64,000 nucleotides of DNA, from NCBI RefSeq assembly GCF_003334315.1, contig NZ_QOWR01000009.1; one strand, 5' to 3'. A program made the translations under genes and the position numbers. How positions within the stretch are numbered: position 1 is the stretch's first letter; every line of letters starts with the position of its first letter. Source of the stretch: Escherichia coli. GTDB lineage: Bacteria > Pseudomonadota > Gammaproteobacteria > Enterobacterales > Enterobacteriaceae. Below, one piece after another: positions 30,453 through 43,365 of the stretch. The notes beneath the pieces are model-generated. The model was not told where the DNA came from. It worked only from the letters and a program-made list of their open reading frames with translations, and made no database searches.

Positions 30453-31484
30453 TCAGCTGACAACATTCAGGCTCGGAATAAGTTGTGGCGGTATCTCAAT
30501 GCGACGCAGGGTGGTATCGCCAGAATCCACAATTTCAAACACTTTTTCGAGCATGGCGGGTACATCCTGACGAACCATATCGATATCGTGCCCGAGCAGA
30601 GAAACAAAAGGATCCCAGTCAAAACACCCCATTGGCGGTTGATTGGCTCCCGTCTGCCCGGTTTGCGCCAGCCAGCGAACCACCCCTTCAAGAGAGATTG
30701 TCGAGTTGACGAATAACCCGTGAAGCGATACTGCAGAGCTTTGGAAGACCTCTTTCAGTAATCCCTCTACGCGAGCAGAAGAGTAGCCGGTAACCAGTTT
30801 ATGTTCATCCGGTACGGTTATCCCCAAAGCCTGATGGGCATCGACAAAACCACATAAACGTTCAGCAGTATTGTTATCGCTTATACGTCCACCGACAAAA
30901 GTCAAAGGTGCCAGCTTGCCATAGCGTTTCTGGCTGTTGGCTAAAATTCTTTCCGTCAATAATTTCGCCCCCATATAGTTATCAGAAATGATCGACGGCG
31001 CCAGTGTTCCCGGCAGATCCAGATTCAGTGTCGGTACGCCCGCTTGCTGGCACATTTGGGCTATTTTATCCGGTTGAGTCGCTCCGGTAGCAATGACCCA
31101 ATCCACCTGCCAGGAGAGCATGGCGCGAGCAGCCTCAATTTCCAGTTCTGGCTGTCGCCGCGTACAGGTGATGATTGGCAGTAATCCTCTGGCACGCGCC
31201 ATCTCTTCAAATTTTTCGGCAATCGATCCAAAGTATCGGTTGTCATATTTCGGCACAATCATGCCAATAACGTTGGATTTTTTACTGCGCAGTAAACTTG
31301 CCTGCCGATTAATGGCATATCCCTGCTCTTCCGCAATACGGGTGACCTTCTCAGCCAGCTTTGCGCTGATGCGTCGCTTTTTCCAGTTGCCATTCAAAAT
31401 AGCGCTTACCGCACTGGCAGAAACGCCGGTTAATTCTGCCAGGTCGTAAATGGTCGTTTTCTTCGTTTTCTCAACGCGTGTCAC
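30453..31484 (-). CDS. rbtR: LacI-family transcriptional regulator (343 aa), probable ribitol operon repressor
   Basis: LacI-type HTH (TIYDLAELTGVSASAVSAILNG) and periplasmic-binding-protein-like effector domain; divergent from the ribitol operon and convergent with the other regulator. Confidence 0.75.
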   Translation of the reverse strand: MTRVEKTKKTTIYDLAELTGVSASAVSAILNGNWKKRRISAKLAEKVTRIAEEQGYAINRQASLLRSKKSNVIGMIVPKYDNRYFGSIAEKFEEMARARGLLPIITCTRRQPELEIEAARAMLSWQVDWVIATGATQPDKIAQMCQQAGVPTLNLDLPGTLAPSIISDNYMGAKLLTERILANSQKRYGKLAPLTFVGGRISDNNTAERLCGFVDAHQALGITVPDEHKLVTGYSSARVEGLLKEVFQSSAVSLHGLFVNSTISLEGVVRWLAQTGQTGANQPPMGCFDWDPFVSLLGHDIDMVRQDVPAMLEKVFEIVDSGDTTLRRIEIPPQLIPSLNVVS

Positions 31485-31541
31485 AAATTTGCCTCTTCAT
31501 TTTGAATGTCTCTTGCTGAGAATTTAAGCAAGTGCTAGATC

Positions 31542-31559
31542 TGCTTCATCGATTGAGCA
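31542..31559. promoter_or_regulatory. Candidate LacI-type operator in the ribitol regulator/operon intergenic region
   Basis: TGCTTCATCGATTGAGCA: 14 of 18 positions self-complementary around a central ATCGAT. Confidence 0.35.
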
Positions 31560-31642
31560 GTTTGCTTCACACGGCAGCTAAATTCCCGTTCAGTGCGTGC
31601 AAGCAAACAGAGACTATAAATTCGCCCTGGTAAAAGGATTAT

Positions 31643-32395
31643 ATGATGAATCACTCTGTGCCCTCTATGAATACTCCCCTTAATGGCAAAGTTGCAGCTA
31701 TCACTGGCGCTGCGTCAGGTATTGGCCTGCAATGTGCAAAAACGCTGCTCGATGCAGGAGCAAAGGTAGTATTGATTGACCGGGAAGGCGACAAACTGCA
31801 CAAGATTGTCGCTGAGTTAGGCGAAAACGCGTACGCGCTGCAACTCGATCTCTTCAATAATCAGCAAGTCGATAACATGCTGGCGGACATTATCGAACTG
31901 GCGGGTGGGCTGGATATTTTTCATGCCAATGCAGGCGCTTATATTGGCGGCCCAGTGACTGAAGGTGATCCAGATGTCTGGGATCGTGTGTTAAATCTGA
32001 ATATAAATGCGGCGTTTCGCTGTGTCCGTGCAGTCCTGCCGCATATGATTGCGCAGAGGTCGGGCGATATAATTTTTACCAGTTCCATCGCGGGCGTCGT
32101 TCCGGTTATCTGGGAACCGATCTACACCGCGTCCAAATTTGCCGTTCAGGCATTCGTACACACTACCCGCCGCCAGGTTTCTCAATATGGCGTGCGTGTG
32201 GGTGCGGTGCTGCCAGGACCAGTAGTCACTGCCCTGCTTGATGACTGGCCAAAAGCCAAAATGGAAGAAGCCCTGGCAAATGGTAGCCTGATGCAACCGA
32301 TTGAAGTGGCGGAATCAGTATTGTTTATGGTGACCCGCTCGAAAAATGTCACCGTGCGAGATTTAGTGATCCTGCCTGGCAGTGTCGATCTGTAA
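31643..32395 (+). CDS. rbtD: Ribitol 2-dehydrogenase, short-chain dehydrogenase/reductase family (250 aa)
   Basis: SDR cofactor motif [13 protein letters not shown] and catalytic YTASK; matches Klebsiella ribitol dehydrogenase as I recall it. Confidence 0.88.
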
Positions 32396-32405
32396 GGGCG
32401 CAATC

Positions 32406-34010
32406 ATGACAATAACCAAAACCGTTATTGGTGTTGATGTGGGATCAGGCAGTGTCCGCGCCGGGATTTTTGATCTCAACGGATCTCTGCTATCCCATGC
32501 CACAGAAAAAATCACGACTACGCGGCGCAGCGGAAGCCGCGTGGAACAGTCCAGCCAGGAGATCTGGCAGGCGGTCTGTTCATGTATTCGTAATGCGCTC
32601 ACTCTGGCAGACGTTTGTGCACAAAGTGTGGCAGGCATCGGTTTTGATGCCACCTGTTCTCTGGTGGTACTGGATAAAAACGGTGATCCATTGCCTGTCA
32701 GCCCGGAAGGAGATGCAAAGCAAAATATCATTGTGTGGATGGATCACCGCGCCACCGAACAAGCAGAGCGAATCAATGCCACTCACCATCCGGTGCTGAA
32801 CTACGTCGGTGGTAAAATTTCGCCTGAAATGGAAACACCGAAAATTCTCTGGCTGAAAGAAAATATGCCAGAGATCTACGAACGTGCCGGACAATTTTTC
32901 GATCTGGCCGATTTTCTGACCTGGCGGGCTACCGGTGATTTAGCGCGTTCAGTATGCACTGTTACCTGTAAATGGACGTGGCTGGCACATGAAAATCGCT
33001 GGGATCCAGATTATTTCCGCACCATTGGCCTTGCAGAGTTAGCGGATGAAGATTTTATTCGCATTGGTCATCATATTGTTTCTCCCGGAACACCTTGTGG
33101 AAATGGTTTAACAGCACAAGCCGCGGCAGAGATGGGATTACTCCCCGGCACACCTGTCGCTGTAGGGTTAATTGATGCTCACGCTGGTGGCATCGGTACG
33201 GTTGGCGTAGAAGGTGGAGCGCTGAACAATCTCGCGTATGTTTTCGGCACTTCTTCATGCACCATGGCATCTACCACTTCTCCCTCGTTTGTACCGGGTG
33301 TCTGGGGGCCGTATTACAGTGCGATGGTTCCAGGTCTGTGGTTAGTTGAAGGCGGGCAAAGTGCTGCGGGAGCAGCTATTGACCAGCTACTTGATTTCCA
33401 TCCGGCTGTTGAAGAAGCTCGCGAAATGGCACAACGTGTGAATCAGCCCCTCCCCGTCTGGCTTGCTGATCGAATCCTCGAAAAAACGGCGCAACCATCA
33501 GATGCTGTCGCCCTGGCGAAAGGGCTACACGTGGTGCCGGAATTTCTCGGAAATCGCGCCCCCTTCGCAGATCCTCATGCCAGAGCGGTAATTTGTGGCC
33601 TGGGTATGGAGCGAGATCTGGATAATTTACTCGCCTTGTATATCGCTGGATTATGCGGAATTGGTTATGGTCTGCGCCAAATTCTCGACGCTCAAACAGC
33701 GCAGGGAGTAGTGAGTAAAAATATCGTTATTAGCGGCGGTGCCGGGCAGCATCCACTGGTACGACAAATTCTGGCAGATACCTGCGGTATTCCGGTCATT
33801 ACCACGCAATGCTGCGAACCGGTTTTATTAGGCTCGGCCATTCTTGGTGCTGTCGCCGGAAATATTGCACCTTCTGTTGGCGAAGCGATGCAACAATTCA
33901 CCCATGTGGATAAATATTATTATCCGCAAGAACGCTATCAATCTCTTCATCATCGTCGATATGAGGCCTATAAGCAGTTGCAGCATACTGCAAAATTACT
34001 CAGAGACTAA
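32406..34010 (+). CDS. rbtK: FGGY-family D-ribulokinase (534 aa; ORF-track start 32382 overlaps rbtD)
   Basis: FGGY N-terminus (VIGVDVGSGSVRAGIFD) and C-terminal domain. Confidence 0.85.
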   Translation: MTITKTVIGVDVGSGSVRAGIFDLNGSLLSHATEKITTTRRSGSRVEQSSQEIWQAVCSCIRNALTLADVCAQSVAGIGFDATCSLVVLDKNGDPLPVSPEGDAKQNIIVWMDHRATEQAERINATHHPVLNYVGGKISPEMETPKILWLKENMPEIYERAGQFFDLADFLTWRATGDLARSVCTVTCKWTWLAHENRWDPDYFRTIGLAELADEDFIRIGHHIVSPGTPCGNGLTAQAAAEMGLLPGTPVAVGLIDAHAGGIGTVGVEGGALNNLAYVFGTSSCTMASTTSPSFVPGVWGPYYSAMVPGLWLVEGGQSAAGAAIDQLLDFHPAVEEAREMAQRVNQPLPVWLADRILEKTAQPSDAVALAKGLHVVPEFLGNRAPFADPHARAVICGLGMERDLDNLLALYIAGLCGIGYGLRQILDAQTAQGVVSKNIVISGGAGQHPLVRQILADTCGIPVITTQCCEPVLLGSAILGAVAGNIAPSVGEAMQQFTHVDKYYYPQERYQSLHHRRYEAYKQLQHTAKLLRD

Positions 34011-34111
34011 TTAACCAGCCGCCTGACGCTGTTTTCAGGCAATCACTAATAACGACTCACTCCGGTAATATCCCGGAGTGCATTCATCTGCACCCTAAAA
34101 ACGAGGTTTAT

Positions 34112-35386
34112 ATGTCCAGAAATAATAAACAGTGGTTGGGTTTGCCACTGCATCTGATATGGGGATATATCGCCATCGCAGTATTTATGACTGGTGATGG
34201 TTTCGAACTCGCATTCTTATCGCACTATATTAAATCGTTAGGCTTCACACCTGCGGAAGCCTCTTTTGCCTTTACGCTCTACGGCCTGGCGGCTGCCCTT
34301 TCCGCCTGGGTTTCTGGGGTAGTAGCGGAAATCATCACGCCGCAAAAAACCATGCTGATTGGTTTTGTCCTATGGTGCGTATTCCATGTTCTGTTTCTGG
34401 TCTTTGGATTAGGACAGGCAAACTATGGGTTAATCCTGCTGTTTTACGGGATTCGTGGTTTAGCGTATCCGCTATTTCTCTACTCATTTATCGTCGTTAT
34501 TATTCATAACGTGCGTAGCGAAAATTCCAGTTCTGCTCTGGGTTGGTACTGGGCGGTATATTCAGTAGGGATCGGTGTTGCTGGCAGTTATATTCCCAGT
34601 TTTACGATACCGATTATGGGTGAAATGGGAACCTTATGGCTGGCACTGGCGTTCTGCTTTGCTGGCGGTGTCATTGCCATGATCTCCTTGCGTCATGTTA
34701 AAACGCCTGGACATATGCATAATTTAACTCCCCGTGAGAAGTTTGCAGAATTAAGTCGGGCAGTAACTTTACTTTATACCAACCGCAATATTTTTCTCTC
34801 CAGTATTGTGCGCATTATAAATACCTTATCGTTATTCGGTTTTGCGGTCATTATGCCAATGATGTTTGTGGATGAACTGGGATTCACCACCTCTGAATGG
34901 TTGCAGGTCTGGGCGGCATTTTTCTTTACCACTATTTTCTCTAATATTTTTTGGGGGATTGTGGCAGAAAAAATGGGCTGGATGCGTGTTATTCGCTGGT
35001 TTGGTTGCCTCGGGATGGCAGCATCAAGTTTAGCGTTTTACTACATGCCGCAATACTTTGGTCACAACTACTGGATGGCAATGATTCCGGCGATTGCTCT
35101 GGGAACTTTTGTTGCTGCATTTGTGCCGATGGCCGCTGTCTTCCCGGCACTGGAACCAAAACACAAAGGTGCTGCAATCTCGGTTTACAACCTCTCTGCG
35201 GGTATGTCTAACTTCCTGGCTCCGGCAATTGCCGTGGTGTTATTACCGTGGTTTAGCACTATCGGTGTGGTCATTGCCTATACAGCATTGTATCTATTGG
35301 CCTTTGTCCTTTGCGCATTCATTCGCGTTGAGCAGCCAGGATTCAGTTCTGCGCCAGTGACTGAGAAGGCATTGAATATCTCCTGA
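34112..35386 (+). CDS. rbtT: MFS pentitol permease, ribitol transporter type (424 aa)
   Basis: Near-identical paralog of the permease at 25106..26383 (N-termini NKQWLGLPL.L.WGYIAIA.FMTGDGFELAFLSHYIK.LGFTPAEASFAFTLYGLAAALSAWVSGVVAEIITPQKTM). Confidence 0.8.
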   Translation: MSRNNKQWLGLPLHLIWGYIAIAVFMTGDGFELAFLSHYIKSLGFTPAEASFAFTLYGLAAALSAWVSGVVAEIITPQKTMLIGFVLWCVFHVLFLVFGLGQANYGLILLFYGIRGLAYPLFLYSFIVVIIHNVRSENSSSALGWYWAVYSVGIGVAGSYIPSFTIPIMGEMGTLWLALAFCFAGGVIAMISLRHVKTPGHMHNLTPREKFAELSRAVTLLYTNRNIFLSSIVRIINTLSLFGFAVIMPMMFVDELGFTTSEWLQVWAAFFFTTIFSNIFWGIVAEKMGWMRVIRWFGCLGMAASSLAFYYMPQYFGHNYWMAMIPAIALGTFVAAFVPMAAVFPALEPKHKGAAISVYNLSAGMSNFLAPAIAVVLLPWFSTIGVVIAYTALYLLAFVLCAFIRVEQPGFSSAPVTEKALNIS

Positions 35387-35442: not shown

Positions 35443-36495
35443 TCAGGCAATAGTGACTTTGTTATCGAGATAAACGTCCTGCACGGCGTTAATCAGTTTC
35501 ACGCCGTCAGCCATCGATTTCTTAAATGCTTTCCGCCCCAGAATCAGCCCCATTCCGCCTGCGCGTTTGTTGATAACCGCAGTACGCACTGCATCGCTGA
35601 GGTCAGTTTCACCGCCCGCAGCACCGCCGGAGTTTATCAACCCAGCCCGACCCATATAGCAGTTAGCTAACTGATAACGCACCAGATCAATCGGGTTTTC
35701 GCTGGTCAATTTGCTGTAAACACGATCGTCGGTGTAACCGTAATTAATTGCTTTATAGCCGCCGTTATTTTCCGCCATTTTTTGTTTGACGATATCTGCA
35801 CCGATGGTTGCCGCCAGATGGTTTGCCTGACCGGTCAGGTCGGCGGAAACATGGTAATCAACGCCATCTTTCTTAAAGGCGGAGTTACGCAAATAGGCCC
35901 ACAGCACTGTCACCATACCCAGCTCGTGCGCACGTTCAAAAGCCGCAGAAATTTCTTCAATCTGGCGACGTGACTCTTCCGAGCCAAAATAGATAGTCGC
36001 ACCAACCGCAACCGCGCCCATGTTGAACGCCTGCTCCACGCTGGCATACAGCGTTTGATCGTAGGTATTCGGGTAACTTAGCGTCTCGTTGTGATTAAGT
36101 TTGACGAGGAATGGAATGCGATGCGCATAACGCCGCGATACCGACGCCAGCACGCCGTAAGTTGACGCCACACAGTTACAGCCCGCTTCGATCGCCAGTT
36201 CAACAATGTTTTTCGGGTCAAAGTAGAGCGGGTTAGCAGCAAATGAAGCTCCGGCAGAGTGCTCAACGCCCTGGTCAACCGGCAGAATAGAAAGATATCC
36301 TGTGCCAGCCAGACGCCCGGTGTTGTACAACGTCTGCATATTACGTAACACCGCTGGCGGGCGATTATTGTCAATCATTACGCGGTCTACGTAGTCATGT
36401 CCGGGGAGATAAAGCTGGTCAGAAGGAATTGTCATACAACGGTGCTGTAAAAGGTTGTCGGCGTCTTTGCCAAGCAACTGCGCAATATCTGTCAT
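35443..36495 (-). CDS. fbaB: Class I fructose-bisphosphate aldolase (350 aa; ORF-track start 36567 is an extension)
   Basis: DeoC/FbaB-type class I aldolase; start [16 protein letters not shown]. Confidence 0.9.
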
Positions 36496-36751
36496 TACTA
36501 TGCTCCCGTAAATTCCGATTGGATATCGGCTATGGATTGTCCTGGCCCGCCTTTTGCGGGCAATCATAATCCTGGTCGTTACGGGCGAGTTTTTCCATCT
36601 TTTGGATGTTTTTTCAGCGTTTTCTGTTGGCTCGATTCATCAGAAAAAATGTTAGCGCGGTCAAGTTTTCACCGCAAAGGTATTTAAAAGGTATTATTAA
36701 GTGGTATTGTCATCGCGTACCTTACATTACCTGTCATGAAGGAATTAAAAG

Positions 36752-38029
36752 ATGAAAACAACAGCAAAGCTGTCGTTCATGATGTTTGTTGAATGGTTTA
36801 TCTGGGGCGCGTGGTTTGTGCCATTGTGGTTGTGGTTAAGTAAAAGCGGTTTTAGTGCCGGAGAAATTGGCTGGTCGTATGCCTGTACCGCCATTGCGGC
36901 GATCCTGTCGCCAATTCTGGTTGGCTCCATCACTGACCGCTTTTTCTCGGCGCAAAAAGTGCTGGCGGTATTGATGTTCGCAGGCGCGCTGCTGATGTAT
37001 TTCGCTGCGCAACAGACCACTTTTGCCGGGTTCTTTCCGTTACTGCTGGCTTACTCTCTAACCTATATGCCGACCATTGCGCTGACTAACAGCATCGCTT
37101 TTGCCAACGTGCCGGATGTGGAGCGTGATTTCCCGCGCATTCGTGTGATGGGCACTATCGGCTGGATTGTCTCCGGTCTGGCATGTGGTTTCTTGCCGCA
37201 AATACTGGGGTATGCCGATATCTCACCGACTAACATCCCGCTGCTGATTACCGCCGGAAGTTCTGCTCTGCTCGGTGTGTTTGCGTTTTTCCTGCCCGAC
37301 ACGCCACCAAAAAGCACCGGCAAAATGGATATTAAAGTCATGCTCGGCCTGGATGCGCTGATCCTGCTGCGCGATAAAAACTTCCTCGTCTTTTTCTTCT
37401 GTTCATTCCTGTTTGCGATGCCACTGGCGTTCTATTACATCTTTGCCAACGGTTATCTGACCGAAGTCGGCATGAAAAATGCCACCGGCTGGATGACGCT
37501 CGGCCAGTTCTCTGAAATATTCTTTATGCTGGCATTACCGTTTTTCACTAAACGCTTTGGTATCAAAAAGGTATTATTGCTTGGTCTGGTCACCGCTGCG
37601 ATCCGCTATGGCTTCTTTATTTACGGTAGTGCGGATGAATATTTCACCTACGCGTTACTGTTCCTCGGTATTTTGCTTCACGGCGTAAGTTACGATTTTT
37701 ACTACGTTACCGCTTACATCTATGTCGATAAAAAAGCCCCCGTGCATATGCGTACCGCCGCGCAGGGGCTGATCACGCTCTGCTGCCAGGGCTTCGGCAG
37801 TTTGCTCGGCTATCGTCTTGGCGGTGTGATGATGGAAAAGATGTTCGCTTATCAGGAACCGGTAAACGGACTGACTTTCAACTGGTCCGGGATGTGGACT
37901 TTTGGCGCGGTGATGATTGCCATTATCGCCGTGCTGTTCATGATTTTTTTCCGCGAATCCGACAACGAAATTACGGCTATCAAGGTCGATGATCGCGATA
38001 TTGCGTTGACACAAGGGGAAGTTAAATGA
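36752..38029 (+). CDS. yegT: Nucleoside:H+ symporter-family MFS transporter (425 aa)
   Basis: 12-TM MFS with NHS-family character; 4-nt overlap with yegU. Confidence 0.85.
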   Translation: MKTTAKLSFMMFVEWFIWGAWFVPLWLWLSKSGFSAGEIGWSYACTAIAAILSPILVGSITDRFFSAQKVLAVLMFAGALLMYFAAQQTTFAGFFPLLLAYSLTYMPTIALTNSIAFANVPDVERDFPRIRVMGTIGWIVSGLACGFLPQILGYADISPTNIPLLITAGSSALLGVFAFFLPDTPPKSTGKMDIKVMLGLDALILLRDKNFLVFFFCSFLFAMPLAFYYIFANGYLTEVGMKNATGWMTLGQFSEIFFMLALPFFTKRFGIKKVLLLGLVTAAIRYGFFIYGSADEYFTYALLFLGILLHGVSYDFYYVTAYIYVDKKAPVHMRTAAQGLITLCCQGFGSLLGYRLGGVMMEKMFAYQEPVNGLTFNWSGMWTFGAVMIAIIAVLFMIFFRESDNEITAIKVDDRDIALTQGEVK

Positions 38030-39030
38030 AAACAGAACGTATTCTCGGTGCTCTTTATGGGCAGGCGTTAGGGGATGCGATGGGGATGCCCTCCGAGCTT
38101 TGGCCACGCAGCCGCGTTAAAGCACACTTTGGCTGGATTGACCGTTTTCTTCCTGGACCAAAGGAGAATAACGCGGCCTGTTATTTTAACCGCGCCGAAT
38201 TCACCGACGATACCTCGATGGCGCTGTGTCTGGCGGATGCGTTACTGGAACGTGAAGGCAAGATCGATCCGAATCTGATTGGGCGTAATATTCTCGACTG
38301 GGCGCTGCGTTTCGACGCCTTTAACAAAAACGTACTTGGTCCGACCTCGAAGATTGCGCTTAACGCCATTCGCGACGGTAAACCCATTGCTGAACTGGAA
38401 AACAACGGCGTGACCAACGGCGCAGCGATGCGCGTCTCGCCATTAGGTTGTTTGCTTCCGGCGCACGATGTTGATTCCTTTATTGATGATGTGGCGCTGG
38501 CGTCCAGCCCGACCCATAAATCCGATCTGGCGATTGCAGGCGCGGTAGTCATCGCATGGGCGATTTCTCGTGCCATTGACGGAGAAAGCTGGTCAGCGAT
38601 TGTAGATTCACTGCCTTCAATTGCGCGACATGCACAGCAAAAACGCATCACTACCTTCAGCGCCTCACTGGCAGCACGTCTGGAGATTGCGCTGAAAATT
38701 GTGCGCAATGCCGACGGCACCGAATCCGCCAGCGAACAGCTTTACCAGGTCGTTGGCGCAGGTACCAGCACTATTGAGTCCGTTCCGTGCGCCATTGCGC
38801 TGGTTGAACTGGCACAAACCGACCCGAATCGCTGCGCCGTCCTGTGCGCTAACCTTGGCGGCGACACAGACACCATCGGCGCTATGGCGACGGCGATTTG
38901 CGGCGCGTTGCATGGCGTTAACGCTATCGATCCTGCATTAAAGGCGGAACTGGATGCGGTAAATCAGCTTGATTTCAACCGCTATGCCACAGCGCTGGCG
39001 AAATATCGTCAACAACGGGAGGCGGTATGA
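38026..39030 (+). CDS. yegU: ADP-ribosylglycohydrolase-family protein (334 aa)
   Basis: ADP-ribosylglycohydrolase fold motifs (GALYGQALGDAMGMP, GGDTDTIGAMA). Confidence 0.85.
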   Translation: MKTERILGALYGQALGDAMGMPSELWPRSRVKAHFGWIDRFLPGPKENNAACYFNRAEFTDDTSMALCLADALLEREGKIDPNLIGRNILDWALRFDAFNKNVLGPTSKIALNAIRDGKPIAELENNGVTNGAAMRVSPLGCLLPAHDVDSFIDDVALASSPTHKSDLAIAGAVVIAWAISRAIDGESWSAIVDSLPSIARHAQQKRITTFSASLAARLEIALKIVRNADGTESASEQLYQVVGAGTSTIESVPCAIALVELAQTDPNRCAVLCANLGGDTDTIGAMATAICGALHGVNAIDPALKAELDAVNQLDFNRYATALAKYRQQREAV

Positions 39031-39992
39031 GCGGCGCTCGATTACACACGCTGCTGCCTGAATTAACCTCGCGTCAGCCGGTGATGGTCGTCGGCGCGGC
39101 GGTCATTGATGTGATCGCCGACGCTTATGCCCTCCCCTGGCGTGGGTGCGATATCGAACTGAAGCAGCAGAGCGTTAACGTTGGCGGCTGCGCACTGAAT
39201 ATTGCCGTGGCGTTAAAGCGCCTCGGCATCGAAGCGGGTAATGCCTTGCCGCTCGGTCAGGGCGTGTGGGCGGAGATTATTCGCAACCGGATGGCGAAAG
39301 AGGGGTTAATCAGCCTGATCGATAACGCCGAAGGCGATAACGGCTGGTGTCTGGCGCTGGTTGAGCCGGATGGCGAACGCACTTTTATGTCATTCAGCGG
39401 TGTGGAAAATCAGTGGAATCGCCAGTGGCTGGCGCGATTAACCGTTGCGCCTGGCAGCCTGCTCTATTTTTCCGGTTATCAACTGGCCTCGCCCTGCGGC
39501 GAATTGTTAGTGGAATGGCTGGAAAAGCTGCAAGACGTGACGCCGTTTATCGATTTTGGCCCACGTATCGGCGATATCCCGGACGCATTACTGGCGCGGA
39601 TCATGGCCTGTCGACCTTTAGTATCACTCAATCGTCAAGAGGCTGAGATTGCCGCCGAACGTTTTGCTTTATCCGCAGAGATAACAACACTTGGCAAGCA
39701 ATGGCAGGAGAAATCTGCCGCGCCGTTGATCGTTCGTCTCGATAAAGAGGGTGCATGGTATTTCAGCAACGACGCTTCTGGCTGCATTCCGGCATTTCCA
39801 ACGCAAGTTGTAGACACCATTGGGGCGGGCGACAGTCATGCAGGTGGCGTACTTGCCGGGCTGGCCTCTGGTCTGCCACTGGCGGATGCCGTATTACTGG
39901 GCAATGCAGTGGCGTCGTGGGTTGTCGGGCATCGGGGCGGTGATTGTGCGCCAACGCGCGAGGAACTACTCCTCGCACACAAAAACGTATAG
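39027..39992 (+). CDS. yegV: PfkB-family carbohydrate/nucleoside kinase (321 aa)
   Basis: PfkB motifs (VDTIGAGDSHAGG). Confidence 0.85.
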   Translation: MSGARLHTLLPELTSRQPVMVVGAAVIDVIADAYALPWRGCDIELKQQSVNVGGCALNIAVALKRLGIEAGNALPLGQGVWAEIIRNRMAKEGLISLIDNAEGDNGWCLALVEPDGERTFMSFSGVENQWNRQWLARLTVAPGSLLYFSGYQLASPCGELLVEWLEKLQDVTPFIDFGPRIGDIPDALLARIMACRPLVSLNRQEAEIAAERFALSAEITTLGKQWQEKSAAPLIVRLDKEGAWYFSNDASGCIPAFPTQVVDTIGAGDSHAGGVLAGLASGLPLADAVLLGNAVASWVVGHRGGDCAPTREELLLAHKNV

Positions 39993-40712
39993 ATCGCTGC
40001 GACAGTGGCTAATGCTGTACTCAATAGGCCGTTGCTGTTGGTCAAGCGCCACTTGCTTGATCACCAGCACCGGTATTTTGCTATCTAACTGAATATGTGA
40101 CTGAAACTCGGCATCCGGCATCCGGGCGCTAACGCGGGAACGTGTACGTTGTGGGTAAATGTGCTGGCTGCGGAAATAGTCATAAAGTGAAATCCCGATG
40201 GCATCAACATCATGAATTAAATGCGCCGGAACCCACGATTCCTCAATCGATACCGCTTCTTCATCGACATAGCGAATACGCTTAAGCAAAAAGACATCAC
40301 TTCCTGCTTCGACCGCCAGCTGCTGCGCGACTTCTTCGGGACATTTCACGACACGCTTGTTAACCCATAGCGTATCGGGCTTTTTCCCGCGCAATACCAC
40401 CTGCTGAGAAAAACCTCGCGCTTCTTTCAACGAGTATTCGAAGATGTTGTTGATCTGCGTGCCGTAACCGCGCGAACGCGTCACCACACCCTCTTCTTCC
40501 AGCGCCTGCATCGCCTTGCGCACCGTAATGCGCGAAACGCCGGTTAACTGACTTAAATCACGCTCACCGGGCAAAATATTGCCATGCTCCAGCACCCCGC
40601 TGCGCACGGCATTTTTTACCGTTTCGGCAAACTTAATATAAAGCGGCGTGTTATCCGCAGCTAAAATACGCTCGTTCAGTTGGGCAATCAGCTGGGTATG
40701 CGCTTGTTCCAT
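39966..40712 (-). CDS. yegW: GntR/HutC-family transcriptional regulator (248 aa)
   Basis: GntR HTH (LPGERDLSQLTGVSRITVRKAM) and UTRA-like C-terminal domain; 3' end overlaps the yegV 3' end by 27 bp. Confidence 0.85.
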   Translation of the reverse strand: MEQAHTQLIAQLNERILAADNTPLYIKFAETVKNAVRSGVLEHGNILPGERDLSQLTGVSRITVRKAMQALEEEGVVTRSRGYGTQINNIFEYSLKEARGFSQQVVLRGKKPDTLWVNKRVVKCPEEVAQQLAVEAGSDVFLLKRIRYVDEEAVSIEESWVPAHLIHDVDAIGISLYDYFRSQHIYPQRTRSRVSARMPDAEFQSHIQLDSKIPVLVIKQVALDQQQRPIEYSISHCRSDLYVFVCEE

Positions 40713-40763
40713 TTGTCTTTTTCCTGCCAGGGAGTCTGGTGGGAGTATATCACTGCTTCTTAT

Positions 40764-41582
40764 TTAAGGCGTTTCTTTAATCCCATCAACGAATCCCTGC
40801 AACTCCTCCACCGTGCCATTAAACACATTAAAATCCACCGGACCATTGATGCCATCTACCTGTCCACGGTCGGAATGCTGCCAGAAGCGCCAGGCCATTC
40901 CGTCATTGTCCGGACGACGTTGATAATAGTGAGCCACCCACCACGGATATTCATTAAAATAGCCCGCCAGATTCGTGTGATAAAAAACGGCTCCTGAGTA
41001 AATAATCGGCTTTTTTCCCGTGCGTTTTTCTACCATTTTTAGCCACTGACTTACCCGCTTGCGTAATTCTTTTGCCGATAATTTTCCCCGTTCTTCTACG
41101 TCCAGCACGGCAGGGAAATCGCCTTGTGAGAAATCCACCGTTTGCAGAAATAATCGTGCCTGAACCGGCGCTGCTACCGACGGGGAGAAATAATGATACG
41201 CCCCGCGCAGCAGGCCATTTTCGCGGCTTAGTTGCCAGTTACGCGAAAAATAGGGGTCCACCAGCTTTTCGCCTTCCGTCGCCTTAATAAAAGCAAACTG
41301 TAAGCGGATACCGTTGTCGCGCATTTTTGCCACCCGCTGCCAGTCGATCCGCTCCTGCCAGCGAGAAACATCTATTCCGTGAATGGTGTAACTGGCAGGA
41401 ATGCGAATAGCGAAAGATTTAACCGGGCGATAACCGTAGAAATGGATGTAGTCTTTAATCTGAATTGCTGTCGAATAGAAAAAATTCACCGTCTGACGCG
41501 GATAAATTGCAACGATAGAAATTAGCCCAAGAGCGCATAATAGAGAGGTGAGTTTTTTTCGACTGGTAATTCTTAGCTGCAT
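40764..41582 (-). CDS. yegX: Glycoside hydrolase family 25 (lysozyme-like) protein with signal peptide (272 aa)
   Basis: GH25 signature (GIDVSRWQ) after an N-terminal signal/TM segment. Confidence 0.8.
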   Translation of the reverse strand: MQLRITSRKKLTSLLCALGLISIVAIYPRQTVNFFYSTAIQIKDYIHFYGYRPVKSFAIRIPASYTIHGIDVSRWQERIDWQRVAKMRDNGIRLQFAFIKATEGEKLVDPYFSRNWQLSRENGLLRGAYHYFSPSVAAPVQARLFLQTVDFSQGDFPAVLDVEERGKLSAKELRKRVSQWLKMVEKRTGKKPIIYSGAVFYHTNLAGYFNEYPWWVAHYYQRRPDNDGMAWRFWQHSDRGQVDGINGPVDFNVFNGTVEELQGFVDGIKETP

Positions 41583-41646
41583 TGGTTTCATCCCTGAATG
41601 TCAGTGCAAAAGACTGACAATAACCAAAGCAGCTATAGTACGGTGC

Positions 41647-42447
41647 TCACCACCAGGCGTGGAAGTGGTGAACCGGACCAATACCGTGACCAACTTCCAG
41701 CGTGTCGGCCTGGGCTAACGCCGATGAAAGCCAGCTTTTTGCCTCCTGTACGGTGTCAGCCCAGTTTGTATGGCGCGGGCGTAGTGCAGCCAACGCCGCA
41801 GAGAGTGTACAACCAGTGCCGTGGGTGTTTTTGGTCATAATGCGCGGTGCGGTAAACCGTTGTTCACCCTCGCGGGTAAACAGCCAGTCCGGGCTTTGCT
41901 CATCATCCAGATGACCACCTTTCATTAGCACTGCGCCACAGCCCATCGCCAACAGCGATCGCCCTTGTTCCAGCATTTCCTGTTCGGTGCGCGCGTGTGG
42001 CGCGTCGAGCAAGGCGGCAGCTTCGGGCAAGTTTGGCGTTATTAATGAAACCTGTGGCAATAATCGACTGCGCAGCGTAGCAACCGCCGAAGGTGAAAGC
42101 AGCGGGTCGCCGCTTTTTGCCAGCATAACGGTGTCGAGTACCACGTTTTGGATCTGATAACGTTGCAACCGTTCTGCCACCGCTTCAACAATATCGGTTT
42201 CCGCCAACATACCGATTTTAGTGGTATCGATTCGCACATCGCTGAACACCGAATCGAGCTGGGCGGCGACAAAATCAGGCTCAATGCGATACACCGACTG
42301 TACGCCACGGGTATTTTGCGCCACCAGTGCAGTAATAACTGAGCAACCATAAGCGCCAAGTGCCGAGAAGGTTTTAAGATCGGCCTGAATCCCCGCACCA
42401 CCACTCGGATCAGTACCGGCAATCGTCAGAGCGTTAATTCGTTTCAT
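41647..42447 (-). CDS. thiD: Hydroxymethylpyrimidine/phosphomethylpyrimidine kinase (266 aa)
   Basis: PfkB/ThiD ribokinase-like fold ([15 protein letters not shown]). Confidence 0.92.
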
Positions 42448-43239: not shown

Positions 43240-43365
43240 TCCTGCCATAACGTGAAGAAGCAATGACCTGGTGGTCCGTGACTTCCCTACGCTGGCATTA
43301 TCCAGATCAGGTGATACGGGTATTTCTCAGCCTTCACGCAGAAGGGCACCCCGAGTCGTTTGGTT
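43240..43365 (-). promoter_or_regulatory. TPP (thi-box) riboswitch in the thiM leader
   Basis: Minus-strand sequence GGGGTGCCCTTCTGCGTGAAGGCTGAGAAATACCCGTATCACCTGATCTGGATAATGCCAGCGTAGGGAAGTCACGG is the canonical thiM thi-box aptamer. Confidence 0.9.

Follow-up and report, generated by a model that had tools for sequence, protein, structure and literature searches.

The yegTUV-ggaR locus of Escherichia coli as a candidate riboside-utilisation operon pairing an ADP-ribosylglycohydrolase-fold enzyme with a PfkB kinase

The pseudouridine cluster of Escherichia coli (psuK/yeiC, psuG/yeiN and psuT/yeiM) brings together a nucleoside transporter, a PfkB kinase and a glycosidase in one locus; PsuK phosphorylates the riboside and PsuG cleaves the product to ribose 5-phosphate and the base. 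The subject of this study, the yegTUV genes with the convergent regulator gene yegW, has the same make-up of transporter, kinase and glycosidase and lies in a 64,000-nucleotide stretch of E. coli DNA (NCBI RefSeq assembly GCF_003334315.1, contig NZ_QOWR01000009.1), referred to below as the window. The logic of the pseudouridine pathway, of which PsuT and its substrate are mentioned in PMC11241209, is the one that we propose for YegV and YegU. The proteins themselves differ, however: YegU has the ADP-ribosylglycohydrolase (ARH) fold and is not of the PsuG family, and YegT is a transporter of the NHS family whereas PsuT belongs to the CNT family. Because of the ARH fold of YegU, yegTUV is not a member of the PsuK/PsuG pathway, although it may work in a similar manner.

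Other described systems share single components with this locus. The ARH hydrolases DraG, ARH1, ARH3 and Tri1, together with MJ1187, have the fold of YegU (TM scores of 0.7-0.9), and their two-metal ligands are conserved in it; MJ1187 is the closest solved relative and is itself without a known function. In contrast to these hydrolases, YegU falls below the cut-off of every curated equivalog model, appears not to conserve the adenine-clamp residues and is encoded in a transporter-kinase operon rather than being paired with an ADP-ribosyltransferase or a nitrogenase system. Salvage of nicotinamide riboside by PnuC and NadR shares the first step, uptake of a riboside followed by its phosphorylation, and a PnuC homologue follows the YegU-YegV pair in 19 of the loci described below. 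The differences here are that the YegV kinase is of the PfkB type and not a NadR RNK domain, that the E. coli operon uses YegT and not PnuC, that the added glycohydrolase implies breakdown rather than, or besides, salvage, and that a link to an NAD regulator was seen only in one Leuconostoc locus. The YegW protein, renamed GgaR in 2024 (Saito et al., PMC10819704), resembles the single-target repressors of the HutC subfamily of GntR regulators (NagR, TreR, PhnF and HutC) in combining a GntR helix-turn-helix with a UTRA domain, in being encoded beside its only target and in being released by a small-molecule effector (PMC10819704). It differs from them in its candidate operator, which is built from three direct GGT repeats and TACC half-sites instead of one short palindrome, and in a second candidate copy of this operator inside the first structural gene. 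The yegV-yegW pair also resembles the convergent excludons in having overlapping transcripts (PMC12288877); in this case even the coding regions share 27 bp.

The window DNA was 100% identical to the annotated yegT, yegU, yegV and yegW genes of E. coli ECCNB12-2, and the yegTUVW segment was found in 5425 of 5426 complete E. coli genomes. A first-pass annotation of this DNA, made by a model from the letters and an open reading frame (ORF) list, had described a nucleoside-proton symporter, an ADP-ribosylglycohydrolase-family enzyme and a PfkB kinase joined by two 4-nt overlaps, with a GntR regulator converging on the kinase gene. The ORF list and the junction sequences bore out the coordinates of all four ORFs and all three overlaps (Table 1), and the family assignments held against profile models (TIGR00889, PF03747, PF00294, and GntR plus UTRA). 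Both same-strand overlaps are of the ATGA type, the junctions reading GGGGAAGTTAAATGAAAAC (yegT/yegU) and GGGAGGCGGTATGAGC (yegU/yegV); each is preceded, within the upstream gene, by a Shine-Dalgarno-like GGGGA or GGGAGG, and the two were kept in nearly all of 24 loci from Enterobacteriaceae and Pectobacterium. That yegTUV forms one unit, as had been supposed, agrees with the published single mRNA (PMC10819704). The layout, the repressor and the transcript overlap have been described before and alone change nothing; the chemistry of YegU and YegV has not, and yegU and yegV are E. coli core genes still without an assigned function. New in this analysis are the adjacency and fusion of kinase and hydrolase across phyla, the swapping of transporters, the triple-GGT operator candidate and the lineage limit of the 27-bp overlap. 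On balance, we consider it somewhat probable that yegTUV is a normally silent operon for the use of a non-canonical riboside, which is kept under GgaR repression and would import its substrate, phosphorylate it and then cleave it with the glycohydrolase.

A full HMMER search with YegU returned 6840 clusters, 237 of them at E <= 1e-30, and 150 representative clusters were listed. Thirteen of the 150 were longer than 420 aa, and at least 11 of these 13 were fusions of an ARH domain with a ribokinase-like PfkB domain, in the order PfkB-ARH in seven and ARH-PfkB in four. Gene neighbourhoods were analysed in 77 genome loci with YegU relatives and in a few metagenome loci. This analysis revealed a same-strand YegV-like kinase beside the hydrolase in 66 loci, with the kinase immediately downstream (+1) in 53, and a YegW-like regulator in 52. 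Pairs of the YegU/YegV type were present in Enterobacterales, Vibrio, Chromobacterium, Clostridia, Bacilli, lactic acid bacteria, Sutterella and others. The functional coupling of kinase and hydrolase that the first-pass annotation had suggested thus gained support well outside E. coli: their recurrent adjacency and their fusions place the two enzymes in one pathway.

The transporter that accompanied the pair was exchanged between lineages. YegT-type NHS transporters occurred in 29 loci, all from Enterobacterales, Vibrio and Gilliamella, and NCS1 permeases in 17 loci from Bacilli, lactic acid bacteria, Dialister, Sutterella, Chromobacterium and Serratia oryzae. The loci in which a PnuC-family protein directly followed the kinase were mainly from Clostridia, with one Pasteurellaceae taxon; these proteins scored 85.6 bits with the curated PnuC model, above its cut-off of 42.45, and aligned over their full length, with 31-41% identity, to N. 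mucosa PnuC (PDB 4QTN, entered as a nicotinamide riboside transporter). One fusion locus had an ABC system as its transporter. In a neighbour-joining tree of the hydrolases the transporter type tracked clade and taxonomy, with NCS1 permeases in both major clades, and a substrate class common to the clades is plausible. When NrtR, NadC, isochorismatase-like proteins and DeoD were sought over all 77 loci, each was a singleton. The DeoD-type nucleoside phosphorylase was an addition to one locus, and in Leuconostoc holzapfelii an NrtR-type regulator (NUDIX plus NrtR winged helix), a transporter of the major facilitator superfamily (MFS) and NadC stood co-directionally ahead of the module. Since the NAD-related neighbours are singletons, the link to NAD rests mainly on the PnuC transporters. 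Among the annotated neighbours, GalU, an aldo-keto reductase, an M20 peptidase, an AraC regulator, GMP reductase, an aminotransferase and others were also seen; none was recurrent in the way that the transporter, kinase and regulator were.

Some variants were observed alongside these patterns. On metagenome contig L088 (354-8500) an ARH-PfkB fusion of 673 aa, a further ARH protein standing by itself, a GntR/UTRA regulator and an ABC transporter made up of four genes were all encoded on one strand; this is a fifth transporter solution for the YegU/YegV module, with the hydrolase duplicated. In cluster P0162 (692 aa) the ARH domain was N-terminal, and the roughly 350 residues behind it gave no NCBIfam match. 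A distant YegU subgroup (L066, L083 and L086; also L072 and L076) had no adjacent kinase and lay beside the ATPase and T components of an ECF-type transporter; it may reflect a kinase-independent use of the same hydrolase family.

YegT scored 655 bits against the TIGR00889 nucleoside permease model (cut-off 446) and is a protein of 12 transmembrane helices (TM) of the MFS, in the NHS family (TC 2.A.1.10). It is identical to a chain of PDB 8ZOJ, and NupG was matched at E = 2e-51. The sequence carries the GxxxD protonation motif in TM10 (G311-V-S-Y-D315) and a glutamate partner in TM8 (E255), both described for YegT in PMC11979927. In that study YegT was crystallised, the uridine-contact residues of NupG were found not to be conserved in it, and isothermal titration calorimetry gave no signal for uridine, adenosine, cytidine or guanosine (PMC11979927). 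Uptake by YegT was likewise negative for uridine, cytidine, xanthosine and gemcitabine (PMC11241209). Because the partner transporters of the module belong to nucleoside, nucleobase and vitamin-riboside families and YegT rejects canonical nucleosides, a non-canonical riboside is indicated as the substrate.

YegU matched PF03747 (ARH) in the precomputed Pfam assignments, and its AlphaFold model (pLDDT 97.2) has the all-helical ARH fold. Foldseek comparison of this model gave TM scores of 0.81/0.90 to MJ1187 and of 0.73-0.79 to ARH3 and DraG, and also recovered a Thermus ARH-related protein. The two-metal ligands of ARH3 (E41, T76/D77/D78 and D314/D316/T317) aligned to E24, T60/D61/D62 and D280/D282/T283 of YegU, positions that were conserved in 20-24 of 24 family members. 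The conserved ligands, together with the modelled fold, suggest that YegU is a catalytically competent enzyme of the ARH type. The motifs TNGAAMR and TH, which we take to be phosphate-contacting, were near-invariant across the family. In contrast, the adenine clamp of ARH3 (F143 and Y149) aligned, in a loop of uncertain alignment, to N126 and V129 of YegU and was aromatic in 0 of 24 family members; S148 of ARH3 fell within an insertion that YegU is without. DraG binds adenine differently from ARH3. The non-aromatic clamp positions weakly disfavour an ADP-ribosyl substrate for YegU. The PnuC, NCS1 and NHS partners, moreover, transport ribosides and bases that are small and either uncharged or cationic, and we regard an ADP-ribosylated substrate as unlikely. 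The first-pass annotation had offered an ADP-ribosylated or a nucleoside-like compound; the nucleoside-like half of this suggestion stands, every partner transporter being of a nucleoside, nucleobase or vitamin-riboside type, and the ADP-ribosylated half is not supported. Scores of 80 bits against the curated DraG model (cut-off 337) and 70 bits against the Tri1 model (cut-off 490) left YegU with no characterised equivalog.

YegV matched PF00294 (PfkB) in the precomputed assignments and has a GG pair at positions 53-54, DTIGAGD (DTxGAGD, with the catalytic Asp) at 263-269 and a ribokinase-type N-terminal Asp, D28. Its best curated model was ribokinase, for which it reached 84 bits where the cut-off is 299.65, and all 17 NCBIfam matches were far below their cut-offs; no equivalog, meaning a kinase of known substrate, therefore applies to YegV. 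Comparison with ribokinase structures gave E values of 1e-14 to 1e-16. According to a 2025 preprint (10.1101/2024.07.01.601547), YegV is still entered in UniProt as an uncharacterised sugar kinase. Literature searches linking ARH with PfkB, nucleoside, PnuC or nicotinamide riboside returned nothing relevant, and a ribose-kinase paper on RikA (STM3547) was set aside as concerning a different gene.

The regulator YegW consists of a PF00392 GntR winged helix and a PF07702 UTRA domain and matched the PhnF, HutC and TreR models below their cut-offs. Published chromatin immunoprecipitation (ChIP-chip) analysis placed it at a single genomic location, the fbaB/yegT spacer, with a weaker site at +571..+869 of yegT; in electrophoretic mobility shift assays (EMSA) its affinity was highest for the 190 bp upstream of yegT, and the +571..+869 probe was bound at higher concentration (PMC10819704). 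The yegTUV mRNA is a single transcript of 3.3 kb that was detectable by Northern blotting only in the absence of YegW, and loss of YegW raised yegTUV expression about 30-fold by RT-qPCR and left fbaB unaffected (PMC10819704). The first-pass annotation had called the module cryptic and assigned its control to YegW; the operon is indeed silent in laboratory conditions, and YegW is the published repressor GgaR. A CRP site from SELEX has also been reported somewhere within the fbaB/yegT spacer.

A consensus scan found a sole promoter-like site upstream of yegT, a candidate sigma-70 promoter (Table 1). Overlapping its -10-like hexamer are three direct GGT(AT) repeats with spacings of 11 and 13 bp, followed by a conserved GTACC/TTACC block with TACC half-sites that extends to ~36735; this candidate primary operator falls inside the published EMSA probe 2. 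A second copy of the triple repeat, GGTATCAAAAAGGTATTATTGCTTGGT, lies within yegT. The pattern GGTAT-N6-GGTATTATT-N4-GGT occurred twice in the window, at these two sites, against 0 expected, a count that is not independent because the pattern was derived from the same two sites. The two sites coincide with the two GgaR-bound fragments, the internal one lying inside the +571..+869 probe; PMC10819704 gives no GgaR motif. The upstream copy and its GTACC/TTACC block were near-invariant in an otherwise divergent spacer in Escherichia, Salmonella, Kluyvera and one more genus, and the upstream copy preceded yegT in 22 of 28 loci. The internal copy gave a strict match in 8 of the 28 and encodes a conserved peptide, GIKKVLLLG. 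We propose the triple-GGT element as a candidate GgaR operator, on the strength of its sequence and position. The spacer has two further blocks conserved over four genera, TCTGtTGGCtCGATTCA at 36623-36639 and AAATGTTAGCGCGGTCAAG at ~36646-36665, to which other regulators of fbaB or yegT may bind.

For yegW itself, a candidate extended -10 was read upstream of the start codon, and the TATACT was found at this place in Salmonella too, in which the upstream gene is thiD and not yegX. No -35 was recognised with it, and the consensus scan reported no promoter there. This candidate fits the published abundance of GgaR, about 20-30 molecules per cell, a level that was constant over all conditions tested (PMC10819704). 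Overall, the simple promoter and terminator scan gave sites no more often than in shuffled sequences and none at the yegV/yegW overlap.

All 24 of the Enterobacteriaceae and Pectobacterium loci examined kept the 27-bp overlap, even where the length of YegV varied (317-326 aa), and its DNA had one variable position over four genera. Such retention, together with that of the two 4-nt overlaps, goes beyond chance. The overlap was 4 bp in Tatumella and was absent from Budvicia, Rahnella and Gilliamella; in other phyla the YegW-like regulator was either divergent upstream or co-directional downstream. The C-terminus of YegW, DLYVFVCEE, was conserved with or without the overlap, whereas the YegV end, LLAHKNV, was lineage-specific. 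Because the overlap is confined to Enterobacteriaceae and Pectobacterium and the YegV end is specific to that lineage, we regard it as a lineage-specific compaction frozen by two-strand coding and not as a requirement of the module.

The simple terminator scan found no intrinsic terminator between yegV and yegW. The plus strand from 39940 to 40080 folded unusually well (z = -4.65), and a long hairpin with a U-rich tail, which the same scan did not flag, lies antisense within the yegW coding sequence and is a candidate terminator of yegTUV as judged from its sequence and predicted fold. An mRNA ending at this hairpin would be ~3.4 kb long, in agreement with the 3.3-kb Northern band. The hairpin and tail were preserved in 13 genera with an RNAalifold covariation term of -0.13; a hairpin preserved without covariation gives no sign of selection on structure beyond the coding constraint. 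On the minus strand, the region 3' of yegW showed no unusual structure (z = -0.03). With the candidate yegTUV terminator inside yegW and no structure 3' of yegW, complementary 3' ends of at least ~100 nt are expected. This expectation is consistent with the RNA-seq excludon catalogue, in which yegV-yegW is among 165 convergent MG1655 excludons and occurs in at least 50% of 58 RNA-seq sets (ExcludonFinder, 2025, PMC12288877); the transcript overlap considered in the first-pass annotation had thus already been recorded.

In the scheme that we favour, a few constitutive GgaR dimers per cell would bind the triple-GGT operator over the -10 of the yegT promoter, and the weaker copy inside yegT, and would silence yegTUV until an effector releases the repressor. 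YegT would then import the riboside with a proton, YegV would phosphorylate its 5'-hydroxyl, and YegU, as a two-metal ARH-fold enzyme, would hydrolyse the ribosyl bond to yield ribose 5-phosphate and the free aglycone, with translation of the three genes coupled via the ATGA overlaps. Through the complementary 3' ends, strong transcription of yegTUV could reduce the expression of yegW and make induction sharper. To our knowledge, the substrates of ARH-fold enzymes all carry a 5''-phosphorylated ribose; because these enzymes, as far as we know, act on ribose that bears a 5-phosphate, a kinase-first scheme is the most economical, and by this analogy the kinase probably precedes the glycohydrolase. 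Kinase first is at least as likely as the opposite order given in the first-pass annotation, deglycosylation and then phosphorylation. The substrate is possibly a pyridine-type riboside, these ribosides being the leading candidates. A bolder extension, which we put forward as speculative and unlikely, is that YegU/YegV-type pairs form a widespread, undescribed pathway for pyridine-type ribosides, in which the mononucleotide would be made by the PfkB kinase and a small-molecule nucleotide glycohydrolase of the ARH fold would free the base and ribose 5-phosphate. Its substrate might be nicotinamide riboside, nicotinate riboside, a reduced or alpha-anomeric form of either, or a compound closely analogous to them.

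The same net chemistry would result if YegU hydrolysed the riboside directly to base and ribose, replacing the Rih enzymes, and YegV then acted as a ribokinase to give ribose 5-phosphate, and the comparative evidence fits this order equally. We consider it possible but rather unlikely. YegV has ribokinases as its top curated matches and retains D28, the GG pair and DTxGAGD, and the gene order T-U-V follows the proposed steps; however, its score falls far short of the ribokinase cut-off, E. coli already has RbsK, a kinase of free ribose would have little reason for repeated fusion to a hydrolase in both orders, and the ARH-fold substrates that we know of have a phosphorylated ribose. In a published proposal, yegTUV imports or produces ADP-glucose and thereby promotes glycogen synthesis, with GgaR sensing ADP-glucose (PMC10819704). 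It draws on the release of GgaR from DNA by ADP-glucose, and not by glucose or ADP, in EMSA, on a ggaR mutant that stored 2-3 times more glycogen and grew poorly on minimal glucose, and on a yegV deletion reported to lower glycogen; the effector evidence is in vitro, no in vivo test having been possible, and the paper shows no activity of YegT, YegU or YegV on ADP-glucose, its authors calling the basis 'somewhat ambiguous' (PMC10819704). The hydrolase-kinase pair is accompanied elsewhere by PnuC and NCS1 carriers and not by nucleotide-sugar transporters, and no glg gene was seen among the neighbours run through NCBIfam, a scan that was not systematic. ARH enzymes cleave at ribose C1'', and ADP-glucose is without such a bond. 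The glycogen phenotype could arise indirectly, as the burden of a kinase and a transporter overexpressed 30-fold, and we judge the proposal quite improbable. Still less credible is a role in which YegU strips ADP-ribose from protein or nucleic acid in the style of DraG, ARH1, ARH3 or Tri1, as part of a reversal or immunity system. Membership of PF03747, the weak DraG and Tri1 model matches and the structural match to ARH3 and DraG would accommodate it; we rejected it, and with it a toxin-immunity role, because none of the genes next to yegTUVW in the annotated loci that were examined was called as an ADP-ribosyltransferase and a PADLOC run on all four proteins gave no defence-system match. The model scores are also far under their cut-offs, the positions aligned with the adenine clamp are not aromatic, and a small-molecule transporter, a sugar-type kinase and a metabolite-sensing UTRA repressor together are the signature of a catabolic operon.

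Several observations weigh against the kinase-first use of a non-canonical riboside that we favour. The literature covered, to mid-2026, assigns no enzyme activity to YegU or YegV, and, the best curated match of YegV being ribokinase, free ribose might be phosphorylated after hydrolysis. The sole reported effector is ADP-glucose and the sole phenotype glycogen accumulation, both of which are explained only indirectly. As the transporter type follows the YegU tree, substrates may be clade-specific, and the locus of NAD type was a single one. The conservation of the internal triple-GGT copy may be coding-driven, since the peptide encoded there is conserved. The constant GgaR level over all tested conditions (PMC10819704) belongs here too, and it bears equally on the idea that the 27-bp overlap is a functional antisense switch, in which yegTUV induction would lower yegW mRNA by convergent transcription or RNase III and so create positive feedback and all-or-none induction. 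An antisense effect of the overlap is plausible; a switch of this kind is a possibility that we take seriously while leaning against it. Transcripts overlap in most RNA-seq sets (PMC12288877), no terminator was found between the genes, the candidate yegTUV terminator lies ~40-90 nt inside yegW, no structure was found 3' of yegW, and the overlap is retained with almost invariant DNA throughout the Enterobacteriaceae and Pectobacterium loci. Invariance is expected anyway where both strands are coding, however, and the module works without the overlap, as judged from other Enterobacterales that are without it and from the divergent or co-directional regulators elsewhere; yegV-yegW is, moreover, only one among 165 such pairs.

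The comparative results narrow the candidates for the favoured riboside pathway to a short list, ribosides and their 5'-phosphates. Identification of the substrate would give a metabolic role to the ARH fold, so far known for the removal of ADP-ribose from macromolecules, would explain a module that is conserved in many gut bacteria, and would ground the glycogen phenotype of the ggaR mutant in biochemistry. A pyridine riboside, if it proved to be the substrate, would make this the first metabolic, non-ADP-ribose role of the fold. It might also supply a gene for the nicotinamide mononucleotide (NMN) nucleosidase activity that was reportedly found in E. coli long ago.

Table 1. Genes and candidate regulatory features of the yegTUV-ggaR locus, in window coordinates
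Feature	Position	Strand	Size	Description	Basis or remark
yegT	36752-38029	+	425 aa	NHS-family MFS proton symporter	ORF list and profile match
yegU	38026-39030	+	334 aa	ARH-fold, predicted metal-dependent ribosyl glycohydrolase	ATGA start over yegT stop
yegV	39027-39992	+	321 aa	Ribokinase-like PfkB kinase	ATGA start over yegU stop
yegW (ggaR)	39966-40712	-	248 aa	HutC-subfamily GntR repressor with UTRA effector domain	
yegV/yegW convergent coding overlap	39966-39992	both	27 bp	CTACTCCTCGCACACAAAAACGTATAG	
Candidate yegTUV mRNA 3' end	40029-40080	+		Long hairpin 40029-40073, then UAUUUUG	Antisense within yegW coding sequence
Candidate sigma-70 promoter of yegTUV	36668-36697	+		TTCACC, 18-nt spacer, TATTAT	Consensus scan; within 190-bp GgaR-bound region
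Candidate primary GgaR operator	36679-36705	+		Three direct GGT(AT) repeats, GGTATTTAAAAGGTATTATTAAGTGGT	Overlaps -10-like hexamer of yegTUV promoter
Internal triple-GGT copy	37559-37585	+		GGTATCAAAAAGGTATTATTGCTTGGT; candidate low-affinity GgaR site	+808 of yegT
Candidate extended -10 of yegW	40744-40752	-		TGaTATACT	~30 nt upstream of ATG; read from sequence

The locus is flanked by fbaB, upstream and divergent, and by yegX, thiD and thiM, downstream on the yegW strand. An Rfam scan of positions 36000-41800 at E <= 1 matched no RNA family. The longest fbaB ORF spans 35443-36567 (minus strand, 374 aa), and the RefSeq protein has 350 aa with its start at ~36495; the upstream in-frame start is probably unused. 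Beyond fbaB, positions 30500-35386 hold a four-gene cluster of pentitol type, comprising a LacI-family regulator, an SDR oxidoreductase, an FGGY pentulose kinase and an MFS transporter of the RbtT/DalT/CsbX family (34112-35386). A 299-aa YegS-like lipid kinase is the neighbour of fbaB in another E. coli (L011) and in Salmonella; as this gene holds the place there, the pentitol-type cluster is a strain-variable insertion. On the other side, yegX (40764-41582, minus strand), which encodes a lysozyme-like protein of glycoside hydrolase family 25, lies between yegW and thiD in E. coli. Salmonella, Kluyvera and Enterobacteriaceae bacterium 89 have no yegX at this position, and thiD there comes directly after yegW. 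RefSeq annotates a thiamine pyrophosphate (TPP) riboswitch upstream of thiM at ~43267-43363 (minus strand), outside the region scanned with Rfam. Since thiM, thiD, yegX and yegW share a strand with short gaps, some read-through into yegW is conceivable.

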